DNA of 64,000 nucleotides from an uncultured Rikenellaceae bacterium (lineage in GTDB: Bacteria > Bacteroidota > Bacteroidia > Bacteroidales > VadinHA17): positions 2,298 through 66,297 of the forward strand of contig CAZXSW010000007.1 of assembly GCA_964642615.1 (NCBI GenBank), given 5' to 3'. The position numbers were made by a program, and so were the translations under genes. Each line of letters begins with the position of its first letter. Within the stretch, counting starts at the first letter, position 1. Positions 48,983 to 64,000 of the stretch are shown here, in pieces. The notes under the pieces are model-generated. The model made no database searches and was not told the origin of the DNA. It worked only from the letters and a program-made list of their open reading frames with translations.

Positions 48983-50143
48983 ATGAAGAAAGTATTAAGT
49001 GTTTTTTTAAGCGTGTTTTTAGTTACTGCACTGATAATGGTCAGTTCGGAAACTGCTACCGGTCAGACTGCCAAACCGGCTGCTAAAAAAATTGTTCCCG
49101 GAGTACAGGCTCCTCCTGCCAATCCAGGACAGAATAACTTCGGTGGGATGCGTCCACCTGCAGGCTCAGCTCAACCAAGGCCTCCCATGGCCCGTCCTCC
49201 AATGGCTGAACCAAAGATTACTACGGTTTCACTTGATGATATTTCAATGAGTGACCCTTTTATCTATGTTGAGAAATCGACGAATACCTATTATCTCACA
49301 GGTACCGGCGGACGTCTTTATAAAAGCAATGACCTTAAGATGTGGACAGGACCGTATTCCATTATCAACCTGGAGGGAACATGGATGGATGGTAATTTTG
49401 TTGCTGCCGCAGAGATTCACAAGATAGGTAATAAGTATTACCTGGCAGGCACCTGGAGTGATCACAGCACAATTATCCAGTATGTACCCCGCCGTTATAA
49501 TGTGCCGCGTAACCAGACCCAGCTTCTGGTTGCCGATACGCCCGAGGGTCCGTATTACCCCCTTGTCAAGGAGAAAGAGTTTTGCCTCGGTCCTGAAGAC
49601 TGGGATATCATCGATGGAACACTTTATGAGGAGAACGATACTACCTATATGGTAATAGTTCATGAATGGACCCAGCTGATCGACGGGACAATGGATTACA
49701 TGCCTCTTTCAAAGGACCTTACACACAGGACGGCTGATCCGATCACTATGTTCCGTGCAAGTGAAGCAGCCTGGTCAAAGGAAATGAACGGTATTGGAGA
49801 AGCTACTTTTGGTCTTAAAATGCCGGGTTGGGTAACTGATGGTCCTCAGATGTTCAGGACAAAAACAGGAAGACTTGGAATGTTATGGTCGAGCTGGGGT
49901 GACAGAAGATATGCTCAGGGGATTGCCTGGTCGGAGTCAGGTACTATCCACGGTCCGTGGATCCAGGAACCAGAATCGTTCAAAGGCGATAACTCGGGTC
50001 ATGGAATGCTGTTCACCACCCTTGAGGGCAAACTGCTGTTTATCATTCACCATGCCGAAGGCAACGGCCCCAGGAAACCAGAGCTTTATGAAATAGACAA
50101 CTCGGGTGATAAACTTATTCTGGGAGCCAGATATAATCCCTGA
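48983..50143 (+). CDS. glycoside hydrolase family 43 protein with a Pro-rich N-terminal linker
   Basis: 386 aa. The signal peptide is followed by about 50 aa of low complexity (PPANPGQNNFGGMRPPAGSAQPRPPMARPPMAEP) and then a five-bladed-propeller-like GH43 core (SDPFIYV.....YYLTGT, WAPE-like AAEIH, DG). Confidence 0.8.
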   Translation: MKKVLSVFLSVFLVTALIMVSSETATGQTAKPAAKKIVPGVQAPPANPGQNNFGGMRPPAGSAQPRPPMARPPMAEPKITTVSLDDISMSDPFIYVEKSTNTYYLTGTGGRLYKSNDLKMWTGPYSIINLEGTWMDGNFVAAAEIHKIGNKYYLAGTWSDHSTIIQYVPRRYNVPRNQTQLLVADTPEGPYYPLVKEKEFCLGPEDWDIIDGTLYEENDTTYMVIVHEWTQLIDGTMDYMPLSKDLTHRTADPITMFRASEAAWSKEMNGIGEATFGLKMPGWVTDGPQMFRTKTGRLGMLWSSWGDRRYAQGIAWSESGTIHGPWIQEPESFKGDNSGHGMLFTTLEGKLLFIIHHAEGNGPRKPELYEIDNSGDKLILGARYNP

Positions 50144-50220
50144 TTCTTTAAATAGTTTATTTGATGTCGCGACCCCGAAGGTTTATCTTCATTTTCCAGG
50201 GGTCGGTATTTAGCAGCAAA

Positions 50221-50259
50221 GATCCCTGACCTCAATGGTCAGGGATCTTTTAATTTTTA
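50221..50259 (+). terminator. rho-independent terminator after the GH43 gene
   Basis: A perfect 11-bp stem GATCCCTGACC (50221-50231) / GGTCAGGGATC (50237-50247) with a 5-nt loop is followed by TTTTAATTTTT. Confidence 0.8.
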
Positions 50260-50360
50260 CCTGAAACCGGAATTGCGCTTTCGGGCTGACCGTCGGGCTG
50301 CTGCTGTCAGTTTTTGGAGTTAATGCTACTTTCTTTCAGGCCCGGCAAGAGGCGGTATTG

Positions 50361-51128
50361 CTAAATATCAAGTATAATGCCTACCGGGCAATGGTCTGAT
50401 CCGGTTATTTCTTCATGAATAAAGGAGTCTTTCACCTTAGGGAGGAAGTAACTGCTTACAAGGAAATAATCGATTCTCCAGCCTATGTTTCTCGATCTTG
50501 CGCCTGCCCTGAAGCTCCACCAGGTGTATCTTCCGGCCATTTCAGGATAAAAATGGCGGAAAGTATCAGCCAGACCGCCACCGGTCAGCCTGTCCATACC
50601 GTCTATTTCTTCCTGCATATACCCTGCTGCCTTGTTGTAGTTCTCTTTAGGCCTGGCCAGGTCAATACTCCTGTGTGCCACATTCAGGTCGCCGCAGACG
50701 ACAACCGGTTTGGTTTTTTCAAGTTCCTTAAGGTATCCGAAAAATGCCTTGTCCCATTCCTGCCTGTAACCCAGTCTCAGGAGCTCACTCCCTGAATTCG
50801 GCACATATACATTTACAAGGAAGAACTGTTCAAACTCAAGGCATAAAACCCTGCCCTCAGTGTCATGTTCTGCAATTCCGATGTCGTAAGTCACATTAAG
50901 AGGTCTGATCCTTGAAATAACAGCTGTTCCTGAATAACCCGGCCTTATGGCTGAGTTGGAATATATATACAGGCCACTCAGTGGTTCAAGGGTTTCAGCA
51001 ACCTGACCATCCTGTGCCTTTGTCTCCTGCAGGCATGTTATGTCGGCGTCAAGAAATTCAAGATCGCTGAAGAAAGATTTCTTTGCTATCGCTCTTATGC
51101 CGTTGACGTTCCATGAAATGATCTTCAT
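50361..51128 (-). CDS. xth: exodeoxyribonuclease III
   Basis: The start is at MKIISWNVNGIRA (ATG 51128). The motifs are CLQETK, GDLNVAH, WWS.R and the C-terminal SDHCPV. Confidence 0.9.
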   Translation of the reverse strand: MKIISWNVNGIRAIAKKSFFSDLEFLDADITCLQETKAQDGQVAETLEPLSGLYIYSNSAIRPGYSGTAVISRIRPLNVTYDIGIAEHDTEGRVLCLEFEQFFLVNVYVPNSGSELLRLGYRQEWDKAFFGYLKELEKTKPVVVCGDLNVAHRSIDLARPKENYNKAAGYMQEEIDGMDRLTGGGLADTFRHFYPEMAGRYTWWSFRAGARSRNIGWRIDYFLVSSYFLPKVKDSFIHEEITGSDHCPVGIILDI

Positions 51129-51281
51129 ATGCGGTAATAAATTAATCAATATCCTGTAAAGATTCCATATCCGGGATAATTTTCAGGACTATGGTTATGC
51201 CCTTCGGGGTACTGCCTGAAGATAATATCTTTGATTCAAAAATGGCAGGAGTATGCCGCTAAAAATTCAAGGAGTCTTAGG

Positions 51282-51620
51282 TCAGAGTACCCTTGTTGAG
51301 GCAAGGGGTTTCGGAGCTTTGACGACCAGGATCCGGGCCCTGGCTTCGGAACTGTTTGACAGGCAGTGGATGATGTCTTTCGGACTCTCAACAAGTCGGT
51401 CTGAGCTGACAGTCACTGTCTCGTCACCAACCCTTATATCAACATCTCCTTCGAGGATGTAAAAAAAGACATCCACAGGAGTGATATGGGGTTTCAGTGA
51501 CTCTCCCGGCTTTAGTGTTATATGCATAACCTGTGCGCTGTCGAGGTCGTACAGCTTCCTTACGTCAACCTTGTGTGGTGTTTCGACAATGCTTTTATCT
51601 TTCCAGTCGGTAATTATCAT
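51282..51620 (-). CDS. cupin domain protein
   Basis: 112 aa with the cupin_2 pattern PGESLKPH......FFYILEG...I.VGDE. Confidence 0.7.
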   Translation of the reverse strand: MIITDWKDKSIVETPHKVDVRKLYDLDSAQVMHITLKPGESLKPHITPVDVFFYILEGDVDIRVGDETVTVSSDRLVESPKDIIHCLSNSSEARARILVVKAPKPLASTRVL

Positions 51621-51626
51621 ATTTAT

Positions 51627-52175
51627 CTATTTTAAGGAAGGATCCCCCTTCCATAGTCCTTTATTGCCTTTTCGTGCCCCTGAAGCCAGTTCAGTGAATG
51701 TACCTGCATGCCTTACATTGGGTGGAACAGTCATTACAGTTGCGTAACCGTTCTTTACCATCTCGGCATTGACGAAGGTACCATCCTCAAGAAATACATA
51801 CGCCAGTGTGCGTCCATACCTGTCATACCTCGAAACATCGAATTCAAGTCTTACCTTTTTGTTATATAACAACTCTTTGAGGTAAATGGTTGACTCTGCC
51901 CCGAAGAAACTTTTTGTCTTTGTTCCGGTATTGCGTGGTTCGGGCGAGTCGATTCCTGTCAGACGTATCTTCAACCCCTTTGAACTGCCGTCATCAATCC
52001 AGAATGTATCGCCGTCGACTATTTTCTTAACAGGGAACCATATTCCGTCAGCAGGGCTGACGGCGGTTGATGGAAGGGTTTTTTCAGAAGCCTGTTCTGA
52101 GATGGCCGTTACCTTGTCCTGCGAAAATGCAGTAAAAGGCAGAATGGCCAGGAGTATTTGGAGAATATATTTCAC
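51627..52175 (-). CDS. secreted thermonuclease (SNase) family protein
   Basis: 182 aa with a signal peptide. The motifs are IRLTGIDSPE, DRYGRTLAYVF and VNAEMVKNGYA. Confidence 0.8.
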   Translation of the reverse strand: MKYILQILLAILPFTAFSQDKVTAISEQASEKTLPSTAVSPADGIWFPVKKIVDGDTFWIDDGSSKGLKIRLTGIDSPEPRNTGTKTKSFFGAESTIYLKELLYNKKVRLEFDVSRYDRYGRTLAYVFLEDGTFVNAEMVKNGYATVMTVPPNVRHAGTFTELASGARKGNKGLWKGDPSLK

Positions 52176-52270
52176 CTGTCAGATCAGATAGTGATTATTA
52201 CAAATAAAGGATCGGCAATTTAAGAAATTATTCCTTTTGCTTTTACTGACAAGCCTGTTAAGAAAAAGAG

Positions 52271-53539
52271 CTATTCCATCTCCCTGGCAATAGCCATTGC
52301 CGCTATTGTCCCGTCGGCCACTGCTGTTGTTATCTGCCTGTATTTTTTGCTTATGACATCTCCTACAGCATAAATGCCTGGTATGCTTGTCTGCATATCT
52401 TCATCTGTAATGATGAAGCCCCGGTTATCAAGCTTAAGCTTATCGCTGAAGAGTTCAACGTTGGGTTTCATTCCAATGAATACAAAGACGCCGTCACTTA
52501 CAAGCTCTGTTTTCTCACCCGTTTTTACATTTTTCGTAAGGGTAATAAGCTTATCTCCTTCTTTTCTGAATTCCCTGGGTTCATTATTGAAAATGAAATT
52601 CATCTTAGGATTTTTAAATATCCGTTCCTGGGCCTGCTTATTGGCTGTAAGTTTATCGAACTGGTGAACCAGGGTAATCCTGGATGCAAACTTGCTTATA
52701 TATTCCGATTCTTCTACTGCAGAGTTACCTCCTCCAATAACGACGACATCCTTGTCGTTAAAATATTTGGCATCGCAGGTTGCGCAATAGGAGATACCCC
52801 TGCCTTTAAGTTCTTTTTCGCCTGCAGCACCAGTGAGGTTGGGAGTGGTACCGGTGGCGATAACTATTTTTTTTGCCTTTATTGTCTCGTACTCATCTAT
52901 AACAACCTCTTTTTTTACAAGGTCGACAGAGGTAACATCCACAGCCACTTTGTATACTGTTCCGCAAAGCTTGGTCTGCTCACTCATGTTGTGCGACAGA
53001 AGAAAGCCGGGCTGGGGCTCAATAAATCCGGGATAGTTTGAAACCTGATGGGTTGTTGACACATTTCCTCCCGGCAAAGCAAGGTCAATGAGCACGGTAT
53101 TTATCTTTGACTGGCATAGATATAATCCGGCAGTAAGTCCTCCCGGTCCGGCTCCCAGAACAATTACATCGAACTCAGATACCGAAGGTTTAATTGTTGA
53201 CTTTATCGCGCCGGCTCTTTCGGGTGTAAGCATGGAATCGAGATTTTTAATGATCTCACTTCTTTTTATGCCGCCACCCAGTCTTCCCGAAATCTCCTTT
53301 CCGTTGTCATAGAAAAGAAGTGTCGGGGATGATTTAACTCCCAGCTTTTCTGCAAGCTCTCTGTTTTCCTGACGGAATATTTTCAGGAATTTTATATCCT
53401 TTCCGTATAGTAATGAAAGGTCCTCAAATTTTGAAGCAAGAGCCTCGCACGGAGGACATTCGCTCGAATAAAAATCAAGTACTACTTTTCCACCATCGAT
53501 AACTTCATTGTCAAATTCCTGAGCAGTGATCTCTTTCAT
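52271..53539 (-). CDS. thioredoxin::thioredoxin-reductase fusion protein (N-terminal Trx domain with a CPPC motif fused to a low-Mr TrxR)
   Basis: 422 aa from ATG 53539 (MKEITAQEFD...). The Trx fold is VVLDFYSSECPPCEAL...SSPTLLFY. The TrxR part has VIVLGAGPGGLTAG (FAD), the redox-active CATCD and VIGGGNSAVEE (NADPH). The ATG overlaps the TGA of the radical SAM gene (ATGA). Confidence 0.85.
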   Translation of the reverse strand: MKEITAQEFDNEVIDGGKVVLDFYSSECPPCEALASKFEDLSLLYGKDIKFLKIFRQENRELAEKLGVKSSPTLLFYDNGKEISGRLGGGIKRSEIIKNLDSMLTPERAGAIKSTIKPSVSEFDVIVLGAGPGGLTAGLYLCQSKINTVLIDLALPGGNVSTTHQVSNYPGFIEPQPGFLLSHNMSEQTKLCGTVYKVAVDVTSVDLVKKEVVIDEYETIKAKKIVIATGTTPNLTGAAGEKELKGRGISYCATCDAKYFNDKDVVVIGGGNSAVEESEYISKFASRITLVHQFDKLTANKQAQERIFKNPKMNFIFNNEPREFRKEGDKLITLTKNVKTGEKTELVSDGVFVFIGMKPNVELFSDKLKLDNRGFIITDEDMQTSIPGIYAVGDVISKKYRQITTAVADGTIAAMAIAREME

Positions 53540-54870
53540 ATTACCTGTTGATTTAAATAAACTGAAAATCCAAGTTCCATAAGTTCCTTTACAGGACGGC
53601 AATCAGGGGCATTTATGATACCCGTTCTGTTTTTTGCCACCGAGCCGCATCCTCCTCCGCAGGCAAGCTGAACAGGGCAGCTTTTGCATTCGGGAATCGA
53701 AGTGACATCGCGTGTTTCCCATTTTTCTATTAATTCGTCCTTTCTGGTGACATCGGGATAAAAAGTCCCCAGCAGCTCATCTCTTTTCCCAACCGTTGCC
53801 GTGCACGAATAGATACCTCCTGTATAGTCAAAGGCCCATTCTGTCTTGCAGGCGGGACATGAATCGAAGAGGGGATCGGGAAGAGTTCCGTTTTCGGAAA
53901 GGAATTTTGTCAGTGACCATGCGGGCTTGTAAAATTCCTGAATATGAGGATGGATCTTTACAAGCTCAAATATCTTCTCATAAAGTGATAGCCTGTCAAA
54001 AAGCTTTTCAGGTGCTGACTGACAATGATGAAGCTCATAATTGCGGCCTATCTGTGTTTTAAAAAGACCGCTGCCTGTCCAGCCACTGTCAATTGCATAC
54101 CGTGCGAGATTGGGTAAGTCATCAATATTATCCTTGTCGGCTACCATACGAAGGTTAATATTGATTCCGTTTTCGAGGCAGGCATCAATCCCTTTTGCTA
54201 TTTTCTCAAAGGTTTTTCCTCCGCCTTTTAATGATCTCCTGGTGTCGTGAATTACAGCAGTGCCATCGAGAGTAACCTGGATCTCCCTTATTATGCCTTT
54301 TTGCAGGACAGGGATATACTCTTCAAGATAATAACCATTGGTTACAAAACAGAGGGGAAGACCAGCACCGGCAGATTTTTCGACTATATAGGATATCAGC
54401 TCTTTCTGTGCCGGATTTCCCAGCATAGGCTCCCCGCCGAATATTGTAATATATTTTCTCCGCGATGCAAACTCCTTATCCACATATATGAAGAAAGTAT
54501 CAATAATTTCTTTTGTAAGAGCTTGTGAAGTATAGCTGTACTGATCCTGGTAACAATAGCTGCAGGCAAAGTTGCAACTGTAGTTTGTCACGAAAAATAT
54601 CTGAATTTCTTCATCTTCCCTGTTATCTATGAAATCGAGATATTTACTGCGGTAAAGCTTTTCTTCTTCAGACTCTTCAGACAGATAGCCTTTTTCAGTC
54701 AGTTCATCCGTGAAGGCCCTGTCATCAGGATTTCCACCTTCGATGATAAGCTTTAACTTAGTGGCATCTTCCTTATTAAGTATGTCAGCATTACCTGAGA
54801 GGACATTAACTATGAAATAGTTCTCAGAATCTCTTATCCTTGAGAAGATGTTGTGTTTTGAATATTTCAT
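53536..54870 (-). CDS. radical SAM/SPASM-domain peptide-maturase-like enzyme
   Basis: 444 aa. CNFACSYC (CX3CX2C) lies at residues 99-106, after an extension of about 90 aa (NIFSRIRDSENYFIVNVLSGNADIL, as in peptide maturases). A complete SPASM motif is present: CKTEWAFDYTGGIYSC (CX9GX4C) ... CKSCPVQLACGGGC (CX2CX5CX3C) ... C. Confidence 0.9.
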   Translation of the reverse strand: MKYSKHNIFSRIRDSENYFIVNVLSGNADILNKEDATKLKLIIEGGNPDDRAFTDELTEKGYLSEESEEEKLYRSKYLDFIDNREDEEIQIFFVTNYSCNFACSYCYQDQYSYTSQALTKEIIDTFFIYVDKEFASRRKYITIFGGEPMLGNPAQKELISYIVEKSAGAGLPLCFVTNGYYLEEYIPVLQKGIIREIQVTLDGTAVIHDTRRSLKGGGKTFEKIAKGIDACLENGININLRMVADKDNIDDLPNLARYAIDSGWTGSGLFKTQIGRNYELHHCQSAPEKLFDRLSLYEKIFELVKIHPHIQEFYKPAWSLTKFLSENGTLPDPLFDSCPACKTEWAFDYTGGIYSCTATVGKRDELLGTFYPDVTRKDELIEKWETRDVTSIPECKSCPVQLACGGGCGSVAKNRTGIINAPDCRPVKELMELGFSVYLNQQVI

Positions 54871-54873
54871 TTA

Positions 54874-54978
54874 TCAGTCGTGGCAGCCTGCAACTGTTTT
54901 TGAGGTTTTTGCACAACACTGAGCCACTTTGGCTTTACTTTTTGTCTTGTCCGTTTTTTTTCTGATAAAACTTTTCAT
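54874..54978 (-). CDS. unannotated 34-aa Cys-containing peptide (candidate rSAM/SPASM substrate or RiPP precursor)
   Basis: Hand translation of the minus strand gives ATG(54978)...TGA(54874) = MKSFIRKKTDKTKSKAKVAQCCAKTSKTVAGCHD. It begins 8 nt after the thioredoxin stop, and its TGA is followed by TAA and then the ATG of the radical SAM gene. It occupies 105 of the 116 intergenic nt. Confidence 0.55.
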   Translation of the reverse strand: MKSFIRKKTDKTKSKAKVAQCCAKTSKTVAGCHD

Positions 54979-54986
54979 GATTTCTT

Positions 54987-55454
54987 TTATTTGATTTTAA
55001 GTATTTCATTTATAGCACCAACAAGGGCTTCCCTGGGAAGAGCTCCCATAGTCCCCTGAGGAGGCCCTTCAGCAGGAATGAAAAGCAGTGTCGGCAGACT
55101 TGTTATGCCAAGCGTTTGAGCCAGAAGCTGCTCCTTGTCTGTATCCACCTTATAGACATCTATCTTCCCCGAATATTCCTTTGCAATCTCTTCAACAAGA
55201 GGAGATAGCTGCCTGCAGGGAGGACACCAGTCGGCATAAAAATCAATGATAGCCGGTCTTTCGCCTTCAAATTTCCATTCCTTATTTATGTCATAATTGA
55301 AGATCATTTCCTTGAATGAATCGTTGGAAAGGGTCCTTACAGCGCCTTCTCCGGCAATTTCTGAGACAGCAGTTGCCTCCGGACGCCTGTCGGCTTTGCA
55401 ATCACTGAATATCAGCGTAAAGCCTGCGATCAATATTAAAAAATATTTACTCAT
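54987..55454 (-). CDS. exported thioredoxin-family protein (probable lipoprotein) with a WCPPC active site
   Basis: 155 aa. The signal sequence is MSKYFLILIAGFTLIFSDC. The Trx fold is AIIDFYADWCPPCRQLSP....YKVDTD......LGI.SLPTLLFIP. Confidence 0.85.
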   Translation of the reverse strand: MSKYFLILIAGFTLIFSDCKADRRPEATAVSEIAGEGAVRTLSNDSFKEMIFNYDINKEWKFEGERPAIIDFYADWCPPCRQLSPLVEEIAKEYSGKIDVYKVDTDKEQLLAQTLGITSLPTLLFIPAEGPPQGTMGALPREALVGAINEILKIK

Positions 55455-55506
55455 CTTCTGTCAAATAGATATTGATATTTGTAATTATTTAAATAATTTT
55501 TTTTCT

Positions 55507-55539
55507 GCCTGCATGGCTGTGTGCTAAATCAATGCAGGC
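55507..55539. other. 8-bp hairpin GCCTGCAT/ATGCAGGC (17-nt loop) in the gap between the methyltransferase and thioredoxin genes
   Basis: Read directly from the sequence. On the transcribed (minus) strand it is followed by A8 rather than a U-tract, so it is not a canonical terminator. Confidence 0.4.
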
Positions 55540-55552
55540 AACAGCAGATTAT

Positions 55553-56179
55553 TTATTTCTTTTTTCCTGTAATGGTCCAGCTGCTAACCAGTACACTGCC
55601 TTTTTCATAGGGGGCAGATTCTTCGAGCACTGTTACTGAATTGAATCCTGCATTTTCGAGCTGACCTGAATATTCATTCCTGGTTACAGCCCCGGCCCAG
55701 CATTCGGCCACAGCTTCAGGATCATTCCTGTATTTGTCGGGAACAGGCTCGAGGGAATATATATCACTTACAACAAATCTTCCACCGGGTTTGAGAATAC
55801 GGTTTACTTCATTCCATACAGATTGTTTATCTGAAGAATGATTGATTGTGCAGTTTGAAATTACCAGATCGACACTTGAATCATCGAGACATAGTTTCTC
55901 AAGCGGGCAGTTAAGAAAGCTTACGTTTTTAACACCAAGACGTTCGGCTGTATTTCTTGCTTTCTGAAGCATGCCCTCTGAAATATCTATTCCATATACA
56001 AAGCCCTGTGGACCTGCTGACTCAGCCATCCTTAACACATCAGTTCCCCTTCCGCTTCCCAGATCAACTATAGTCTCTCCTTCAGAAACCTCAGAATGGT
56101 TTATAGCCCCTCCACATGAGAGGCAACAATCTGTGTCTGCCAGTGTACTGTATCTTTTATTTATTTCAATATTATTCAT
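55553..56179 (-). CDS. arsM: ArsM-like SAM-dependent methyltransferase (short form)
   Basis: 208 aa. It has an N-terminal Cys cluster DCCLSCGG, the SAM motif I VDLGSGRGTD, VISNCTINHSSDK and ECWAGA. The Cys placement matches the arsenite methyltransferase pattern (SNCVINL, C.AGA). Confidence 0.6.
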   Translation of the reverse strand: MNNIEINKRYSTLADTDCCLSCGGAINHSEVSEGETIVDLGSGRGTDVLRMAESAGPQGFVYGIDISEGMLQKARNTAERLGVKNVSFLNCPLEKLCLDDSSVDLVISNCTINHSSDKQSVWNEVNRILKPGGRFVVSDIYSLEPVPDKYRNDPEAVAECWAGAVTRNEYSGQLENAGFNSVTVLEESAPYEKGSVLVSSWTITGKKK

Positions 56180-56198
56180 AGTGAAAATCAGGTTAATA

Positions 56199-56453
56199 TC
56201 AGTCCTGTTTTTTCTGCGCCCCTTTACCCGGAGAAGGTGTGATAAGGAAACCCAATAAACCTCCCATTATAATGCTTCCCCATGGTGTGCTTGTTATCGG
56301 ACAGGTCCCGGAATTACATCCGATAAAGTAATAATAAAGATATCCTGCCACAGCTCCGGTTGCTACTCCCAGGAAAGGTCTCCAGAAATGCCACGACTTA
56401 AAAAAATCCATTCCGGATTTTGGTTTTGTTGTTGCAGATAAGTCAGAATCCAT
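56199..56453 (-). CDS. DUF6132-like small membrane protein with a GCNSGTCPITS motif
   Basis: 84 aa (or 70 aa from the second Met at 56411). It has two TM segments flanking a GC-x-SG-x-C-P-I-T-S motif. Confidence 0.6.
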   Translation of the reverse strand: MDSDLSATTKPKSGMDFFKSWHFWRPFLGVATGAVAGYLYYYFIGCNSGTCPITSTPWGSIIMGGLLGFLITPSPGKGAQKKQD

Positions 56454-56475
56454 TAATCAGTATTTATTTTTTTTG

Positions 56476-56483
56476 CAAAGATA
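56476..56483 (-). promoter_or_regulatory. putative -7 promoter box TATCTTTG for the minus-strand DUF6132/arsM(/trx-peptide-rSAM) transcription unit
   Basis: The plus strand reads CAAAGATA, 23-30 nt upstream of the ATG at 56453. Confidence 0.45.
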
Positions 56484-56492
56484 TAAATTTTA

Positions 56493-56506
56493 TGCGATAA
56501 ATCGCA
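56493..56506. promoter_or_regulatory. palindrome TGCGAT-AA-ATCGCA in the divergent control region (candidate operator)
   Basis: A perfect 6-2-6 inverted repeat lies immediately upstream of the minus-strand -7 box and 41 nt upstream of the plus-strand -7 box. Confidence 0.4.
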
Positions 56507-56546
56507 ATAGTATCACTTAAATCATATTATTATCACTCATTTTTTT

Positions 56547-56554
56547 TATCTTTG
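56547..56554 (+). promoter_or_regulatory. putative -7 promoter box TATCTTTG for the zinc-ribbon ORF
   Basis: Perfect TAnnTTTG 18 nt upstream of the ATG at 56572. The 8-mer is identical to the divergent promoter box. Confidence 0.45.
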
Positions 56555-56571
56555 TTGTTAATAAGTACTTT

Positions 56572-57018
56572 ATGGAGCCAATTTTCAAAGGAGAACTTTC
56601 AGAAAGACAGCTTGAAGAGCTTTTCAGCAGTGATGAAAAATGTCTTCAGTTTCTTGCAGAGATTAAATGGAAGGATGGTTTTGTCTGCCGGAAATGTGGG
56701 AATGATAATTACTGTGCCGGAAAAACTCCGTGGTCAAGGAGATGTACGAAGTGTAAATCAGAGGAATCGGCGTCGGCGGGGACTATATTTCACAACTGCA
56801 AATTCCCGTTGCATAAAGCATTTTACATTGCCTACAACGTTTGTAAGGGGAAGGAAGACATTTCAACCTATGAATTTGCACGGAGGTTATCGCTGAGGCA
56901 GATGACCTGCTGGAACTTCAAAACAAAAATATTCCATGCCCTTCAGGAGATGGATTCTCTTACAGAAAAAGAAAAACAGTCGATACAAAGGATCTTTTCC
57001 CAGGAGATCAGGAAATAG
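56572..57018 (+). CDS. stand-alone IS1595-type transposase N-terminal zinc-ribbon/HTH domain protein (no DDE domain)
   Basis: 148 aa. CLQFLAEIKWKDGFVCRKCGN......RRCTKCKSEESASAGTIFHNCKFPL.KAFYIAY matches the Zn_Tnp_IS1595 layout. The ORF stops where the DDE catalytic domain would begin. I saw no flanking terminal inverted repeats. Confidence 0.65.
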   Translation: MEPIFKGELSERQLEELFSSDEKCLQFLAEIKWKDGFVCRKCGNDNYCAGKTPWSRRCTKCKSEESASAGTIFHNCKFPLHKAFYIAYNVCKGKEDISTYEFARRLSLRQMTCWNFKTKIFHALQEMDSLTEKEKQSIQRIFSQEIRK

Positions 57019-57409
57019 CTTTGTTTACTATTTCAAGCGTTTCATCCGAAGCAGCTTTCATCACTTTTGCTATTGAATCGGGCTGGCCGGCTGACATTTT
57101 ACTTCCGTCAATAACTGCAATGTATGTAAGGCCGTCGTCCTTTACATAAACCGAAATACGGCATGGCATCATAACCGACATTATCCGTTCATGATTGAGT
57201 TCAAGCATCTGTCCGGAGTATTGGGGTTTGCAGATCTCAATTACCTTAACCGGTTTTACAGTTTTTCCTGATTTAAGCAGTGAAAGTTGCAGGTCGTGTG
57301 TTGCGGGTATGTTCCATGATCTTTCACCAGCTTCTTTTAAAATATTGTCAACGGTCCGGTCAAAGTCGTATCCGCTGGTCAGTTCAATAATAAAATCACC
57401 TTTACTCAT
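57008..57409 (-). CDS. DUF302 domain protein
   Basis: 133 aa. The pattern H.L...L......VKPVKVIEICKP.....L......MSVMMPCRISVY..D....IA is typical of DUF302. Its 3' end overlaps the convergent zinc-ribbon ORF by 11 nt. Confidence 0.8.
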   Translation of the reverse strand: MSKGDFIIELTSGYDFDRTVDNILKEAGERSWNIPATHDLQLSLLKSGKTVKPVKVIEICKPQYSGQMLELNHERIMSVMMPCRISVYVKDDGLTYIAVIDGSKMSAGQPDSIAKVMKAASDETLEIVNKAIS

Positions 57410-57560
57410 ATCTCATTTCTTTTAACCGGGGTTCTGGTTTATTACACTTCTTAAATTTAACCACTTTATTTTATTTAATAAGAGGATATTGGATATTATT
57501 TAAACATCCACCTCCAGCCGGGGGTTTTTCCGGCCAGGTCACTTTTGAGATCATGCCTCC

Positions 57561-57602
57561 ACAAAAAGAAAGGAACAGGAATCTTCTACAATTTCCTGTT
57601 CC
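57561..57602 (-). terminator. rho-independent terminator after the GH10 gene
   Basis: A perfect 10-bp stem GGAACAGGAA (57572-57581) / TTCCTGTTCC (57593-57602) is followed on the minus strand by TTTCTTTTTGT. Confidence 0.7.
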
Positions 57603-57655
57603 ATGAATCTGCCGGGAAATAACAATGTTTTTGGTATGCCCGGACCTTTGATTTA

Positions 57656-58759
57656 TCAGAACTTTACAACTTCCCAGAATACTTTTTTGGGTTTGGAGTT
57701 TTCATCAAACAGCAGGGGATACACTTTCATATCTCTTCTGTCGCGCCAGCTGTGCCTGTCGGTTACGTTCCAGAAGGTGATGCTGTTGACAACATCCTTT
57801 TTCTCCCTGAAAACGTTAAAGGCCATTTTGTAAAGATCAATCTGTTTCTGTTCTCTTTCGGGGGTAAAGCCAATTCCGATGGTATCGGTTCTTGAACCAT
57901 AAATCGACACGTCAAGTTCGGTGACCTGTACTTTAAGACCCAGTGAAGCAAATTTATCAATGCTTGCCCTCAGGTTTTCCTCGGTAGGGTCAGTGATGCT
58001 CCAGTGACCCTGCAGTCCCACTGCATGAACCGGTACCCCGGCGTCAATAAGCTTTTTAAGCATTGTATACATGCGGTCCCTTTTGGAAGGGTTTTCTGTA
58101 TTATAGTCATTATAAACAAGAAGGGCATCGGGATCGGCTTCATGGGCCCACTCGAACACTTTAGCCACATATTCCTCGCCTATTATTTTGTACCATTGAG
58201 TCTCCCTGAAGATTCTGGTTGTATCACGATCTTCAATAACTTCATTAAGAACGTCCCATGCATATACTTTTCCCTTGTAACGCGACACTACAGCCGTTAT
58301 GTGATCCTTAAGCCTTGCCATGGCCACTTCCTTTGAAACCTGGTTCCCTTTATCATCCTTGAACATCCAGTCAGCCGTCTGCGTGTGCCAGCATAGTGTA
58401 TGTCCTCTTACTTTCATTCCGTTTGCCATGGCAAAATCGACTATCATATCGGCATTTTCCCATGCAAAACTATCTTCAGCAGGATGAATCGGACCGGGTT
58501 TCATAACGTTTTCAGCGGTGATGCTGTTGAAATGTTTTTTTATCAGCTCGGCTTCTTCTCCCTGAAGGTTTTGAGGACTTACAGCCACCCCGATATCAAA
58601 ATAACCCTGGTAAAAGTCCTTAAGTCCTTTTGTGGAATCAATTCCTCCGGCATCTTTAAGGCCTGAACCGCTGCAGTTGGCTAGCAGGACTATCAGGGCA
58701 GCCATGGCTGACACTGAAAAAAATCTGATAATGGTTGTCATTGATGTTTTTGTCTTCAT
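57656..58759 (-). CDS. glycoside hydrolase family 10 endo-1,4-beta-xylanase
   Basis: 367 aa with a signal/lipoprotein N-terminus. The motifs are GHTLCWH.Q, WDVLNE (acid/base Glu), NDYN and VQVTELDV (nucleophile Glu). Confidence 0.9.
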   Translation of the reverse strand: MKTKTSMTTIIRFFSVSAMAALIVLLANCSGSGLKDAGGIDSTKGLKDFYQGYFDIGVAVSPQNLQGEEAELIKKHFNSITAENVMKPGPIHPAEDSFAWENADMIVDFAMANGMKVRGHTLCWHTQTADWMFKDDKGNQVSKEVAMARLKDHITAVVSRYKGKVYAWDVLNEVIEDRDTTRIFRETQWYKIIGEEYVAKVFEWAHEADPDALLVYNDYNTENPSKRDRMYTMLKKLIDAGVPVHAVGLQGHWSITDPTEENLRASIDKFASLGLKVQVTELDVSIYGSRTDTIGIGFTPEREQKQIDLYKMAFNVFREKKDVVNSITFWNVTDRHSWRDRRDMKVYPLLFDENSKPKKVFWEVVKF

Positions 58760-58889
58760 AAGTATATGTGTTAGGGGTTAATAGACAAAAGCGGCAAAAT
58801 CTTATTTCGGTTTAATGATCAGGTAATTCAAAAATAGTTAAAAAACGTTAAAAAAGACGTAATTAATATGGCTAAAAACTTAAAATAAA

Positions 58890-58952
58890 ACACTTTTACA
58901 GGAACAGGGATCCGGAACAGCTGATAATAAAGTTGAATTATCCTGTTCCGGA
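58890..58952 (-). terminator. terminator-like hairpin after the GH95 gene, with two alternative partner arms
   Basis: TCCGGAACAG (58911-58920) pairs with CTGTTCCGGA (58943-58952). Alternatively GGAACAGG (58901-58908) pairs with CCTGTTCC (58942-58949). T-rich sequence follows on the minus strand. Confidence 0.45.
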
Positions 58953-58969
58953 CCCAGTGCCATGTCAGT

Positions 58970-61423
58970 TTATGGTTTATTGCTTTTTACAACCGCAACT
59001 GTTTTCCCTTTACGGGTTGAAAGATCATATTCATATACTTTCTCAGGTGCATCCGGGGTTATAGCCGCATGGATCAGCGGGCTTTTTATTCCGGGGACCT
59101 TATAAAACATATTGGGATTTTCGCCCTTTGCTTTTTTCAGGCCTTTACCTTTTAAGGGGACGTATGACCTGATACGGCAGTTACCTCCAAGTGATGATTT
59201 GATCACAGCTTCACTTATCTCACCGTTTTCCCATTCGATATCGAGTTCAAATCCGCCTCTGGCTTTTAGTCCGCTTACACTGCCTTTCTTCCATATTCCG
59301 GGAAGGGCTGGCAGAAGATGGACGGCTCCGTCGTGGCTCTGAAGAAACATCTCTGCTATTCCAGAAGTACAACCGAAATTGCCGTCAATCTGGAACGGAG
59401 GGTGGGCGTCAAAAAGGTTGGGATAGGTGCCTCCCCTTTCCCTTCTTCCGGCCTGGATCGATGGACTAAGCTGGTCGGTAATCAGTTTATACGCATGGTC
59501 ACCGTCGAGAAGCCTTGCCCAGAGGTTCACCTTCCATCCCATGGACCATCCTGTTGATTCATCACCACGTGCCTCGAGTGAGGTCCGGGCTGCCGAGAAC
59601 AGTTCAGGGTTTCTGTAAGGCGATATCTGGTTTGAAGGATACAGGCCGTACAGGTGTGAAACATGACGGTGTTTGTCCTCGGGGTTATCCAGATCCTGCA
59701 TCCATTCCTGCAACTGACCCCAGCTACCTGTCTGCATGGGAGGGAGACGGTCAAGAGCCGTCTGAAGACGCGATACAAACTCCGTGTCAGTATCCAGGAT
59801 ACGGGCAGCATTGATTGTCTTGCTTAACAGGTCGAAGACGAGCTGGTTATCCATGGTTGTTCCGGCGCTTATTGAATAAGCCGAACGTACTGACGGAGCA
59901 TTCTCCGGAGAGTTGGATGGAGAAACGACAAGCCATTTGTTTTCGGGCTCTTCAGTAAGAAAGTCGAGAAAGAATTGCGATGCTTCCTTTACTACCGGAT
60001 AGATAGTTTTGAGATACTCCCTGTCGCCGCTGAAATCATATTTGTCGAACAGGTGCTGCGAAAGCCATGCTCCTCCCAGAGGCCATTGTCCCCAGAAAGC
60101 TCCGTCGACAGGTCCGGTAATCCTCCAAATATCCGTATTATGATGAAGAACCCAGCCGCCGGCTCCGTACATATCGCGGGCGGTCTGACGGCCTGTCTGC
60201 GACAGTTCCTGTACCATCTTTATCAGAGGTTCATTCATCTCTGTAAGGTTGGTTATCTCGGAAGGCCAGTAGTTCATCTCAGTGTTTATGTTGACAGTGT
60301 ATTTGCTGTCCCACGAAGGAGTAAGCTGATGGTTCCATAATCCCTGCAGGTTGGCCGGCTGACCTCCTGGCCTGGAAGACGATATAAGAAGATAGCGGCC
60401 AAACTGGAAATAAAGTTCAACAAGCTGGGGATCATCACCCGTGGCAAACTCATTAAGTCTTTGATCAGTAGGTTTCCTTACGGCTTCCGTTGAGCCAAGG
60501 TCAAGGCTGACCCGTCTGAAGAAACTGCGGTAATCGGCAATATGATCATTCAGAATGGCCTCATAGTCTTTCTTTGAGGCAGTGTTGAGGTAGGCAAGGG
60601 CCCTTTCAGAAGGGTCGGCGCCGATGTCTTCATAACTCCTGAAGCCTGAAGCCATCGAGATGAAGATTGTTACTTCATCTGCTCCCCTGACATCAATTAC
60701 CGAATCGGTCGCTGCAACCTGTCCGCCCTTGTTTATAAACCTAGCCCGGGCTTCAAAGCGAAGGCCGCCTTTCACTGTTTCAAAATCGCCTGTCGTTCCC
60801 GACATTATCAGTTCGTTGGTCCCGGCAGTCGATTTGTCAACCTTTGATGGTCTTTCGAGGCTGGCTGAGAAACTTACTGATCCGTGTTTGTCGGCAGAGA
60901 TGCGTACTATCACAACCTGGTCCACACCCGAGGCAAAGACGCTAGTTTTGTAAGCAACACCGTTGACGCTGTATCGCGACGACACCACAGCCCTGTCTAT
61001 ATCAAGCTCACGGTAGTAGTCTGAAAAACCGGCGTTGCCCGGGAATTCCAGTTTCAGGTTACCAACGGTCTGATAAGGCATTCCGTGGGATGTTTTGGAG
61101 ATGAACGCCTGGTTAACCAGATCCTGGGCTTCCTTGTATTTGCCCTCGAAAATAAGCCTCCTGACTTCAGGCAGGGCCTCCCTGGCAGCTGTATTGTCGT
61201 TCCTGTTGGGTTGTCCTGCCCATACAGTGTTTTCATTAAGCTGGATGACCTCGTTAACCGGATCCCCGAACACCATGGCTCCCAGGCGTCCGTTGCCTAC
61301 AGGTAACGCTTCGACCCACTGTATTGCGGGCTTGTCGTACCATAGCTTCAGCAGGTTGTTTTCCTGGGCAGTAAGACCGGTTAAAGACAGGATACTTAAT
61401 ACCAGAACAATCAATTTCTTCAT
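58970..61423 (-). CDS. glycoside hydrolase family 95 (alpha-L-fucosidase/galactosidase type)
   Basis: 817 aa with a signal peptide. [23 protein letters not shown]......IQLNE.T.W.G is the typical GH95 N-terminus. Further family-typical blocks are YT.NINT.MNYW and SPEN. Confidence 0.9.
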
Positions 61424-61455
61424 ATAAAGCAGTTTAGATATTTATTGCCATCAGC

Positions 61456-63051
61456 CTATTTAACTTTTCCCTTTATCATGGTAAGGGAGTGGGCCGGGAA
61501 CGAGTAGGTGGCAGTATTTCCTTTAGCTTTAAGCGCAGGTTTTGAAACCGTTTTTACATTTTCAGCGTCGAAATCATTGACTGTCTTGACATCCTTGCCA
61601 TTAACCTCAAAAACTTCAAGAGTACCGTCGAAGACACCCGACTGGCAGATGATATCAGTGGTTATTGGCTTATCCAGATGCCTGTTGACAACCGAAAATA
61701 CCACTTCTCCGTTCTCATAAACGGCTGATACATCGAGATAGGGGACATCGGTTTGTTTTGTCATTACTTCGCCGGGACCGATAAAGAAATCATCGGTATC
61801 ATAGGTAGGGCAGTCTACAAAGATGTCGAGCGACTTCCCGTACATGTTTTTTGCAAACAATTCGAGCGGGAAATATATAGTCTGGCGGAACATTCCCTTT
61901 TCTTCAGCGAAAATGGGAGCAATGACATTTACAAGCTGGGCCATATTGGCCATCTTTACAACATCTGCATTTCTGATGAACACATTAAGGAAACCTCCTA
62001 TAACAAGAGCATCCTCGAGGTTGTATCTTTCTTCAAGAGCCCTGGTTCCCCTTGTGGTCTCATCAGTTCTTGCCCTGTACCATACGTTATATTCATCCCA
62101 GGCTATGTAGATGGGAGGCCTGTCGCCCCTGTCGGCTTTCTGCATGACCTCATTGATCATTCCTCTTGCAATGTCTGTTCTTTGCTCCATCACCAGAGGG
62201 GTTGTCAGGAAGTTGTAGTAGTTGCCGTCGGGATTGCCCACATACATATGGAGGGCTATGTAATCGACCACATCCCTGAGGTTGGTAAGGATGGTACGGT
62301 TCCAGTGGTCAGGATCAGCAGCGGGTCTGTAGTTTGATGATCCGGCAGCAATAAGTTTGATGTCGGGAGAGGTCAGTCTCATCAGCTTTGCAGCTTCCAG
62401 GGCCTTCTTTGAATAGTCTTCAGCATTCAGGTGACCCATCTGCCATTCTCCATCCATCTCATTTCCAAGACTCCAGTATTTTATATCATAGGGCTCAGAA
62501 AAACCGTGTTTCTTTCTGAGTTCGGCAAAATACGGCCCCTCTTTCACGTTGCAGTATTCGACCCATCTCTGAGCTTCTTCGATAGTACCAGTACCCATGT
62601 TTACCGACATATAGGGTTCACTGCCAACAGCCCTGCAGTATTTTACGAATTCGTTGGTACCGAATTCATTTGTCTCAAGCCTTGCCCAGGCCAGTTCCAT
62701 CCTTGGCACCCTTTCATTCTTAGGCCCAACACCATCGAGCCAGTGATAGTTTGAGACAAAGTTACCACCTGGATAGCGGATCAGGGAGACATTGAGTCCT
62801 TTTACTGCATCCAGCACGTCCTTGCGGAAACCGTCGGCATCCGACAGAGGTGAGCCGGGTTCATAGATTCCACCATATACGCATCTTCCGAGATGTTCAA
62901 CGAAATTCCCGTAGATGTTTTTATCAACCTCCCCGATGATTCTTTCGGTGTCGAATTTTATCCTGGCATTCTGCCCTGTTACATATCCTGTAAGAGGATA
63001 GCTGAGAAAAAGGATAAGTAAAATTGAATAAATGACTTTGCGTTTTTTCAT
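61456..63051 (-). CDS. glycoside hydrolase family 51 alpha-L-arabinofuranosidase
   Basis: 531 aa with IYG.F.EHLGR.VYGGIY, IRYPGGNFVSNYHW and WSLGNEMDG (acid/base Glu). Confidence 0.9.
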   Translation of the reverse strand: MKKRKVIYSILLILFLSYPLTGYVTGQNARIKFDTERIIGEVDKNIYGNFVEHLGRCVYGGIYEPGSPLSDADGFRKDVLDAVKGLNVSLIRYPGGNFVSNYHWLDGVGPKNERVPRMELAWARLETNEFGTNEFVKYCRAVGSEPYMSVNMGTGTIEEAQRWVEYCNVKEGPYFAELRKKHGFSEPYDIKYWSLGNEMDGEWQMGHLNAEDYSKKALEAAKLMRLTSPDIKLIAAGSSNYRPAADPDHWNRTILTNLRDVVDYIALHMYVGNPDGNYYNFLTTPLVMEQRTDIARGMINEVMQKADRGDRPPIYIAWDEYNVWYRARTDETTRGTRALEERYNLEDALVIGGFLNVFIRNADVVKMANMAQLVNVIAPIFAEEKGMFRQTIYFPLELFAKNMYGKSLDIFVDCPTYDTDDFFIGPGEVMTKQTDVPYLDVSAVYENGEVVFSVVNRHLDKPITTDIICQSGVFDGTLEVFEVNGKDVKTVNDFDAENVKTVSKPALKAKGNTATYSFPAHSLTMIKGKVK

Positions 63052-63087
63052 GTTTCTTGAATTTAGGTATTTATAATTATTAATTTT

Positions 63088-64000
63088 TCAGAATAATTCC
63101 TGAAGTGAATTGGTCAGGTAGGTTCTTGCACTGATCCAGTCGTGGGCACCTTTGGCGTAATGGGTTTCCAGGATCAGGCCTTTTCCCAGAAGGAGGGAGA
63201 CGGTTCCCAGGACTTTCTCGTAGAGATAATCCTTTGACCCTATATGGACGGAGAAGTGTTTGATCTGCTCCTTAAGTTCTTCCGGGTCGGGATTCCATCC
63301 CGAAATAAATTCATCGTACATCTTATTTTCAGTTTCAGGTGCGTAAGTGCAAATATTGGCAAATATGCCGGGATTTGAAAGACCTGCAACGGCAGACAGT
63401 GCCCCACCCTTTCCAAAACCGGCAATTGCCCTGTCCGCACTTTCTGTCACTACCGGATATTCCTCTTCTACAAAGGGAATAATATCATCGATGAGTTCAT
63501 CGGTCAAGTCTTTTCCTGTACCGGACAGATAGTCGGTGTATGGCATTACTATTATTACGGGTATCGTCCTTTTCATTGCAATCAGATTGTCGGCAATAAG
63601 GTTGACCCGTCCTGTCTTTACCCATGACTCCTCATTACCGGTTTCATCATGAAGAAGATAAATTACCGGATAACGTATGTTGTTGCATATATTGAAACCA
63701 GGTGGTGTATATATTACCAGTGGCCTTATCTCACCGTCTTTTGAAGAGTGATAGTAACGGTAGTGTATATTACCATGAGGCACCCGTATCAATGATATCA
63801 TTGGTGGTGAATCTCCGGGTATCTCCACGAGGCTGTTTTTAAAACCTGTTCCCGATTCGATAAGGGTGTTGTTGGGATCACATACCCTTACCCCGTCAAC
63901 AATGAAGCTATAAGCATACAGATCGGCCCGGATGCGGCCCAGTGTTACGCTCCAGATTCCTGAACTGTCTCTTGTCATATCGACAGGTAAAGTTGTCATG
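63088..64000 (-). CDS. CE1-type esterase, N-terminus truncated by the right window edge
   Basis: It is a paralog of 47701-48864. YAYSFIVDG is the N-domain motif, and YPVIYLLHD, AGFGKGG and a C-terminal HDW are present. The track Met at 63999 aligns to the middle of the Ig-like domain of the paralog, so the true start lies beyond 64000. Confidence 0.8.
   Translation of the reverse strand, partial: MTTLPVDMTRDSSGIWSVTLGRIRADLYAYSFIVDGVRVCDPNNTLIESGTGFKNSLVEIPGDSPPMISLIRVPHGNIHYRYYHSSKDGEIRPLVIYTPPGFNICNNIRYPVIYLLHDETGNEESWVKTGRVNLIADNLIAMKRTIPVIIVMPYTDYLSGTGKDLTDELIDDIIPFVEEEYPVVTESADRAIAGFGKGGALSAVAGLSNPGIFANICTYAPETENKMYDEFISGWNPDPEELKEQIKHFSVHIGSKDYLYEKVLGTVSLLLGKGLILETHYAKGAHDWISARTYLTNSLQELF

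Follow-up and report, generated by a model that had tools for sequence, protein, structure and literature searches.

On the minus strand of a 64,000-nucleotide stretch of DNA from an uncultured Rikenellaceae bacterium (contig CAZXSW010000007.1, positions 2,298 to 66,297; hereafter the window) lies a 34-codon gene, directly upstream of a gene for a radical S-adenosylmethionine (SAM) enzyme with a SPASM domain. Judged from its substitution pattern among relatives, this open reading frame (ORF) is a protein-coding gene under strong purifying selection. We consider it rather likely that the encoded peptide, MKSFIRKKTDKTKSKAKVAQCCAKTSKTVAGCHD, is a SCIFF-like ribosomal precursor or substrate of the adjacent CteB-like enzyme, which would most probably introduce thioether-type cross-links at the cysteines of a conserved core. 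The peptide has two further partners, an ArsM-type methyltransferase and a thioredoxin/thioredoxin-reductase (Trx-TrxR) fusion, which across the genomes compared are equally conserved. As far as profile and database comparisons tell, the peptide family and the four-gene cassette to which it belongs are undescribed and fall outside all named families.

A short gene under purifying selection

The ORF starts with the ATG at 54978 and ends with the TGA at 54876-54874. Its start lies 8 nt behind the stop of a thioredoxin gene that ends at 54987, and its stop belongs to the sequence TGA-TAA-ATG, the last triplet of which starts the radical-SAM gene at 54870, leaving a spacer of 3 nt. The peptide thus takes up 105 nt of the 116 nt intergenic gap. 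An earlier note on this DNA had described such a gene, and its coordinates, codon number, share of the gap and both spacings were all re-derived from the sequence. Its residue counts, eight Lys/Arg among residues 1-17 and cysteines at C21, C22 and C32, are correct as well. Length alone means little here, since 127 ORFs of at least 30 amino acids (aa) overlap the surrounding 14 kb; it is the comparative evidence that lifts this ORF above chance.

The comparison set consists of 80 loci from species-representative Bacteroidales and Bacteroidota metagenome-assembled genomes (MAGs), in which the radical-SAM protein is 64-74% identical to that of the window (individual loci are referred to by L numbers). 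This protein has thousands of homologues, and its presence in species-representative genomes was verified for at least 556 stretches. A six-frame search finds the peptide upstream of the radical-SAM gene and on its strand in 76 of the 80 loci; of the four without it, one has zero upstream DNA. The last 17 codons exist in 77 distinct nucleotide versions that encode 34 protein versions. The invariant core residues draw on all their synonymous codons, and all three stop codons occur. In the core, the proportion of synonymous differences (pS) is 0.79 and that of nonsynonymous differences (pN) is 0.079 by Nei-Gojobori counts, a pN/pS of 0.10, as compared with 0.18 in the first eight codons. All 78 copies keep this frame open, and the other five frames are open in 0-28 of them.

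The earlier note had taken the ORF for a genuine coding gene and operon member, and the same-strand linkage and the synonymous bias bear this out. The conserved Cys spacing and synonymous-biased substitution that it expected in relatives are both seen, and the disruption of the frame in orthologous loci, which it named as a refutation, was looked for and does not occur. An accidental frame, over a non-coding spacer or an RNA element, is the opposing explanation. ORFs of this size are frequent in the AT-rich DNA of the region, and the gene caller skipped this one on a public contig identical to the window. Against this stand the open frame, the low pN/pS with near-saturated synonymous change, and the encoding of the same peptide in genomes of 27% and of 72% GC. 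An RNA element is rejected, as Rfam gives zero matches in window positions 50000-59000 at E values up to 0.1. Codon-level conservation excludes a chance ORF, which retains virtually no likelihood. Where public records call the gene at all, they label it 'hypothetical protein' only (for example MBP1665647.1).

Architecture of the peptide family

From 1.84 billion representative proteins, a profile made of the window peptide and 15 relatives retrieved 103 representative clusters at 50% identity (E up to 1e-3). A separate protein search used the 43-aa upstream-extended reading of the homologous ORF of L041 as query. Family members are 30-62 aa long, with a single 134-aa ORF as exception, and in those of 30-62 aa the match forms the C-terminus.

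The peptides are bipartite. At the N-terminus they share the motif M-K-S-L-(I/T)-K-K, which is followed by a spacer of about 6 to about 30 residues. Genomes of low GC content have a spacer rich in Lys and those of high GC content one rich in Ala, Pro and Arg; in some cases it contains an additional CC. In the window peptide the spacer is 2 residues longer than in most relatives. The C-terminal 16 residues, AQCCAKxSxxxxGCHD, are almost invariant and end at the stop codon. Invariant or near-invariant in the core are A19, Q20, C21, C22, A23, K24, S26, G31, C32, H33 and D34, the last being the C-terminal residue. The same core is encoded by genomes ranging from 27% to 72% GC. The division into leader and core that the earlier note had proposed is therefore borne out by the conserved MKSxIKKK motif, the variable spacer and the invariant Cys core. 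We also agree with it that the peptide has no GG or other recognisable leader-cleavage motif; the cassette, too, is devoid of a protease or exporter.

The peptide gives zero NCBIfam matches at E values up to 0.1 and no significant Pfam match; a Pfam BTK-motif match with an E value of 0.038 is sub-threshold and was dismissed as meaningless. A literature search found no paper covering the peptide, the DUF6132 protein encoded nearby (see below) or this combination of genes.

The radical-SAM/SPASM enzyme

The neighbouring enzyme carries the radical-SAM motif C99x3C103x2C106 and a complete SPASM motif that consists of C338(/C341)...G351x4C356, C395x2C398x5C404x3C408 and C424. The Cys columns of both motifs are invariant in 15 homologues and align with the SPASM region of CteB. 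CteB (5WGG/5WHY) is also the top relative of solved structure, by sequence (E value 4e-16 over residues 75-417) and by fold (420-437 aligned columns, over the full length). The highest NCBIfam scores, each given with the family cut-off, are those of CefB (NF038107; 143/600 bits), TIGR04463 (123/525), Clo7bot (TIGR04334; 107/600) and PapB (105/340). These scores are 3-5 times below the cut-offs, so that the enzyme is no member of the four families. Its nearest characterised relatives, CteB, PapB, CefB and TIGR04463, act on Cys-rich peptides, and CteB and PapB form thioethers.

The N-terminal domain aligns from residue 1 with that of the CefB, geopeptide and FlmE/OhkG maturases in NCBIfam. An AlphaFold model built on a 15-sequence alignment, used only for the topology of the N-terminus and for a coarse fold match, shows three strands and then helices in the N-terminal ~60-90 residues, a topology like that of a recognition element (RRE) for peptides that are made by the ribosome and then modified after translation (RiPPs), at predicted local distance difference test (pLDDT) values of 53-85. 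Six positions of CteB in proximity to the catalytic site are listed in PMC10288494. By our reading of the alignment, two of the six are identical in the window enzyme (F152 to F144, T186 to T177) and two are conservative replacements (F112 to Y107, S210 to T200). That RiPP radical-SAM compendium makes no mention of Bacteroidetes, thioredoxin or arsenic.

In the maturation pathway that we propose, the MKSxIKKK motif would dock on the RRE-like N-terminal domain of the enzyme and the variable basic spacer would bring the core to the active site. A cysteine thiol may then bind an auxiliary Fe-S cluster, and the 5'-deoxyadenosyl radical would take a hydrogen from an acceptor residue, for which D34, S26, K24 and Q20 are candidates. 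One to three intramolecular Cys-to-carbon cross-links would arise in this way. The Trx-TrxR fusion might keep the cysteines of the peptide, of the methyltransferase or of both in the reduced state. The similarity of the enzyme to CteB and PapB bears on the linkage, which may be of sacti or ranthi type.

Given a cassette without protease or exporter and a core that does not vary between phyla, a cell-associated functional peptide is likelier than a secreted antibiotic. The product would more likely be of this kind, like SCIFF or the precursor of a cofactor, with a presumed intracellular location. It is possible, as one of three possibilities, that the methyltransferase and Trx-TrxR tailor the peptide and keep it reduced.

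The four-part cassette

The Trx-TrxR fusion is encoded in all 80 loci, and an ArsM-like methyltransferase in 75. In the window, the ATG of the fusion gene at 53539 overlaps the stop of the radical-SAM gene (ATGA), which implies translational coupling of the two. The gene call on the identical public contig agrees with this start; the ORF list extends the fusion to a TTG at 53602 (443 aa), and the ATG at 53539 is the conserved start. Most of the 80 loci have the peptide gene immediately upstream of that of the radical-SAM enzyme; in about 16 the distance is 100-270 nt.

The contexts of six divergent peptides from distant genomes were also recovered. In genomes of 65-72% GC the order is methyltransferase, peptide and radical-SAM enzyme, with Trx-TrxR next wherever the contig reaches that far; in a genome of 27% GC it is Trx-TrxR, methyltransferase, peptide and radical-SAM enzyme. 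A precomputed Radical_SAM label downstream of the peptide was available for the MarR-linked contig only, and the enzymes of L083, L084, L088 and L090 were assigned by tblastn. In L081, L082 and L089, a truncated ORF downstream of the peptide gives no tblastn match at an E value of 1e-5. The methyltransferases of these genomes are 47-61% identical to that of the window, the radical-SAM enzymes 39-53% and the Trx-TrxR fusions 52-54%. In each of the distant contexts, the gene immediately upstream of the peptide is that of the methyltransferase. The set shared by the 80 loci and the distant contexts identifies the conserved unit as a four-part cassette, to which no protease or ABC exporter belongs in the loci and contigs compared. 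A small ORF next to the gene of the maturase-like enzyme, on the same strand and linked to it across genomes, is expected of a RiPP precursor and is found in 76 of the 80 loci and in the cassettes of 27%, 65% and 70-72% GC.

Several observations weigh against a precursor-maturase pair. The enzyme gene is present in L042, L055 and L078, where the six-frame search, over a distance of 5 kb, does not find the peptide. The peptide gene of L061 and L062 lies 1.1 and 4.6 kb upstream of the radical-SAM gene, directly behind that of the methyltransferase, which makes linkage to the methyltransferase at least as tight as that to the radical-SAM enzyme. Nor do genes for an ArsM-type methyltransferase and a Trx-TrxR fusion usually belong to those that tailor RiPPs. 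The enzyme itself stays below the cut-off of every named maturase family and is identical to CteB at only two of the six positions mentioned above, H363/Q364, which follow an auxiliary-cluster Cys in CteB, being replaced by T357/A358. A Pfam scan of the enzyme gives no PqqD/RRE match, and the pLDDT of the AlphaFold model falls below 50 from residue 315, in the SPASM region.

The ArsM-like methyltransferase and two other readings of the cassette

The best relatives of the methyltransferase among solved structures are those of ArsM (5EVJ and 4FR0/4FS8, E values 1e-23 to 1e-21). Its C22, C110 and C160 align with the As(III) ligands C72, C174 and C224 of CmArsM. These three cysteines and the pair C18-C19 are invariant in seven cassettes spanning 27-72% GC. 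The protein scores 198 bits against the arsenite methyltransferase family NF008823 and so does not reach the cut-off of 263. At 208 aa it is shorter than the solved ArsMs (320-390 aa) and lacks the ArsM C-terminal domain. JGI labels such short methyltransferases 'arsenite methyltransferase'. Five of the seven compared end in a CC or CCC tail, which the window protein is without. Among L061 (3098-3748), L062 (61-303), L081, L083, L084 and L089, the tails read GCCCKG, GSCCS, GRCC, GGCCA and GQCCAG, and the methyltransferase of the 27% GC genome also lacks a Cys-rich tail. ArsM and AS3MT prefer thiol-complexed As(III) as substrate and are known to use thioredoxin and thioredoxin reductase as reductant system.

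In an alternative model, which we regard as unlikely, the thiols of C21/C22 and C32 bind As(III) or a similar soft metalloid and hand it to the ArsM-type methyltransferase. In organisms that lack glutathione the peptide would be a ribosomal substitute for As(GS)3 or phytochelatin, the catalytic disulfide of the methyltransferase would be recycled by Trx-TrxR, and the radical-SAM enzyme would merely pre-organise the peptide or act elsewhere. The conserved As(III)-site cysteines of the methyltransferase, frequently joined by a CC tail, speak for it, as does the fit with ArsM/AS3MT biochemistry. The gene order does so too, the methyltransferase being the upstream neighbour of the peptide in the distant contexts and still adjoining it in L061 and L062. 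Two of the three peptide-less loci are also without a methyltransferase match, and the third has a partial one of 48%.

On the other hand, none of arsR, arsC, acr3/arsB and arsA is present in the cassettes examined, and the lone ArsR-type helix-turn-helix (HTH) protein, on one distant contig, sits by a second, longer methyltransferase. The sub-threshold NF008823 score and the missing C-terminal domain also count against a role in metalloid methylation. A simple metal binder needs no radical-SAM maturase with a peptide-recognition domain, and yet the enzyme is always present. Conservation over more than 550 species-level genomes is, moreover, unusual for an accessory resistance trait. The carrier model is probably compatible with the peptide being a radical-SAM substrate, the two readings being complementary rather than exclusive. 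A more far-reaching version, quite unlikely in our estimate, regards the four-gene cassette as a self-contained, peptide-dependent metalloid-methylation system in which the peptide, shaped by the radical-SAM enzyme, would be the obligatory thiol carrier or co-substrate for As(III), Sb, Se or Te. In its extreme form, the peptide itself would be covalently arsenylated or methylated.

The third reading, to which we give a low probability and which thus appears very unlikely, assumes that the processed, methylated peptide or a C-terminal fragment of it is a redox thiol/disulfide carrier or cofactor cycled by Trx-TrxR. Cofactor-type RiPPs such as mycofactocin and PQQ are the analogues. Drift of the leader around a core that stays the same from phylum to phylum is the pattern of a cofactor-type RiPP, not of an antibiotic, and Trx-TrxR is a constant partner whose gene is translationally coupled in the window to that of the radical-SAM enzyme. 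Genes for an additional thioredoxin, a DUF6132 protein (CxxGxC), a rhodanese and a YgaP-like protein surround various cassettes, and the conserved set has no exporter or protease. The lack of a peptidase also tells against this reading, as nothing in the cassette would free a small cofactor. No dependent oxidoreductase families are conserved beside the cassette, and the ArsM-type tri-cysteine site of the methyltransferase is left unexplained.

Surroundings of the cassette

The features of the locus are collected in Table 1. The ArsM-like gene that the earlier note had placed just upstream of the peptide is there, as the next gene beyond the thioredoxin.

Table 1. Features of the peptide locus, in window positions
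Feature	Position	Strand	Basis or remarks
Trx-TrxR fusion, 422 aa	52271..53539	minus	TRX_reduct 309 bits, Thioredoxin, Pyr_redox_2
Radical-SAM/SPASM peptide-maturase-like enzyme, 444 aa	53536..54870	minus	NCBIfam, Pfam Radical_SAM, CteB relative
Peptide gene, 34 codons plus stop	54874..54978	minus	sequence, conservation, substitution pattern
Core, residues 18-34 (VAQCCAKTSKTVAGCHD)	54877..54927	minus	near-invariant residues, ends at stop
Leader-like part, residues 1-17	54928..54978	minus	MKS(L/V/F)I(K/R)(K/N)K, then variable basic spacer
Thioredoxin, 155 aa	54987..55454	minus	hydrophobic N-terminal signal/anchor, WCPPC active site
ArsM-like SAM methyltransferase, 208 aa	55553..56179	minus	NF008823 198 bits
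DUF6132 small membrane protein, 84 aa	56199..56453	minus	PF19628, E 6e-9; GCxxGxC motif
Zinc-ribbon protein (IS1595-type), 148 aa	56572..57018	plus	divergently transcribed
DUF302 protein, 133 aa	57008..57409	minus	PF03625

Most of the 80 loci show a match to the whole 155-aa thioredoxin immediately upstream of the peptide. In the others, matches of lower identity fall on the Trx domain of the fusion, and the protein is specific to the Bacteroidales version of the cluster. Less constant are DUF302 (52 of the 80 loci, encoded upstream or directly after the Trx-TrxR gene), the zinc-ribbon protein (49) and DUF6132 (46). The DUF6132 proteins of L061 and L062 end in C-x4-C. An OPT transporter gene follows the cassette in one lineage, and MarR precedes it in two.

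The match of the zinc-ribbon protein to IS1595 transposases is confined to their zinc ribbon and N-terminal region. The protein keeps its divergent position, at 69-84% identity, in the 49 loci that have it, and a transposase remnant was rejected on this ground. It resembles a domesticated DNA-binding protein that regulates the cluster and may be regarded as a candidate for this function. The 3' end of its gene overlaps the convergent DUF302 gene by 11 nt.

A promoter and terminator scan of the window gave counts not above those of shuffled sequence and no terminator 3' of the peptide gene. Among the loci with a spacer of 51-100 nt, about 12 of 33 carry a hairpin and a U-tract right after the stop codon of the peptide (L044, L045, L064, L065, L067, L071, L073, L074, L077, L080, L036 and L025). 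The stability of these hairpins is -19 to -28 kcal/mol, as against -7 to -12 for shuffles. RiPP operons often use a hairpin and U-tract after the precursor gene for over-expression of the precursor. The elements seen here resemble attenuating terminators, which would increase the amount of precursor relative to enzyme.

Two cassettes are present in some genomes: two MAGs contribute two separate loci each (L003/L007 and L006/L036). Positions 1-6423 of L003 hold an apparent tandem repeat of the genes for the peptide and the radical-SAM enzyme and of a 124-aa ORF, with one or more Trx-TrxR genes. The genes inserted at positions 583-4148 of L062 encode, by ORF translation, a NifB/NifX-type cofactor-binding-like protein, DUF134, a protein of metallo-beta-lactamase fold and a second class-I methyltransferase. 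On one distant contig, a Cys/Met pyridoxal phosphate enzyme, a YgaP-like membrane protein and the ArsR-type HTH protein are encoded beside the cassette; on another, it is a rhodanese. Genes of this sort recur in or next to some cassettes and, taken together, hint at sulfur, thiol or metalloid metabolism. A 54-aa ORF with the motif GIDCCKEE follows the OPT transporter behind the high-GC cassette of L083 (6886-7050), and a 53-aa gene is equivalently placed in the distant contig with the ArsR-type HTH protein. As a second peptide of the cassette the 54-aa protein was rejected, since it has no homologue in the Bacteroidales loci or the window.

Farther away in the window, the minus strand encodes a GH10 xylanase (Pfam), two large glycoside-hydrolase-like ORFs and an esterase-like ORF at 57656-63999, and an SNase-type nuclease, a cupin (Pfam) and an exonuclease-III-like ORF at 50361-52175. 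Since these flanks are unrelated to the cassette and unlike those of the other loci, the cassette behaves as an independent module.

Significance

The comparisons define a widespread family of radical-SAM-associated peptides, with the enzyme and the peptide found in the numbers of stretches and clusters given above. Conservation of the core from 27% to 72% GC points to a physiological rather than an antibiotic role, as with SCIFF. The steady association with an ArsM-type methyltransferase and Trx-TrxR bears on arsenic biogeochemistry. If the methyltransferases act on or with the peptide, arsM counts from metagenomes of anoxic soils and sediments may have been misinterpreted; should they methylate arsenic with its help, the mechanism would be new. 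A genuine metalloid-methylation system would amount to a new functional class of RiPP and could explain the non-classical behaviour of many 'arsM' genes of anaerobes. The case also illustrates how small genes drop out of annotation, as this one did on the identical public contig.

Comparison with known systems

The earlier note had offered, as an alternative to a cross-linked peptide, a tri-thiol As(III)-binding peptide with the site geometry of ArsD. A vicinal Cys pair and a third Cys, a potential tri-thiolate As(III) site, are indeed common to both. ArsD, about 120 aa long, adopts a thioredoxin-like fold, carries the cysteines Cys12-Cys13-Cys18 and has the ArsA ATPase as its partner. The window peptide, in contrast, has 34 aa and the spacing CC-x9-C. 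Membership in the ArsD family is rejected on account of the absence of homology, the other size and Cys spacing, and the lack of a nearby ArsA label in a screen that covered the window cluster proteins against the 80 loci and precomputed Pfam labels on a few contigs. The functional idea behind that proposal has fared better, given the constant ArsM-like partner with As(III)-site cysteines and Trx-TrxR.

Like ArsM and AS3MT, the neighbouring methyltransferase keeps the equivalents of C72, C174 and C224 together with an N-terminal Cys pair, and Trx-TrxR is encoded alongside. It differs from them in its short length without the C-terminal domain, in its score below the cut-off and in the absence of other ars genes from the cassette. 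To our knowledge, no ArsM has both a radical-SAM enzyme and a small peptide as partners, and a literature search found no such pairing.

The systems of PapA/PapB (freyrasin), CefB, TIGR04463 and Clo7bot provide the top NCBIfam matches of the window enzyme. In CxxxD motifs, PapB forms a bond between the sulfur of Cys and the beta-carbon of Asp. Unlike PapA with its repeated CxxxD, the window peptide has one CxD, in the invariant C-terminal C-H-D.

SCIFF, with the peptide CteA and its maturase CteB, is a further point of reference. Membership in this family is rejected, because the peptide has no match in NCBIfam, where a SCIFF peptide model would be included, three cysteines rather than six, and an enzyme that scores 76 bits against the SCIFF maturase family (TIGR03974), the cut-off of which is 425. 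The window peptide further differs in its core of 16-17 residues ending in GCHD and in its distribution, since it belongs to Bacteroidales and to lineages of 27% and 65-72% GC, not to Clostridia. Its system always includes an ArsM-type methyltransferase and usually a Trx-TrxR fusion. The likeness lies in the arrangement: both systems place a short, hydrophilic, Cys-containing peptide beside a radical-SAM/SPASM enzyme of about 440-450 aa with an N-terminal recognition domain, a putative one in the window enzyme, in a cluster without a dedicated protease or exporter, and in both the core shows high conservation among widely differing taxa. Even the start of the window peptide, MKS-L-I-K-K, recalls that of the SCIFF peptide, which we take to be MKHIKTL.

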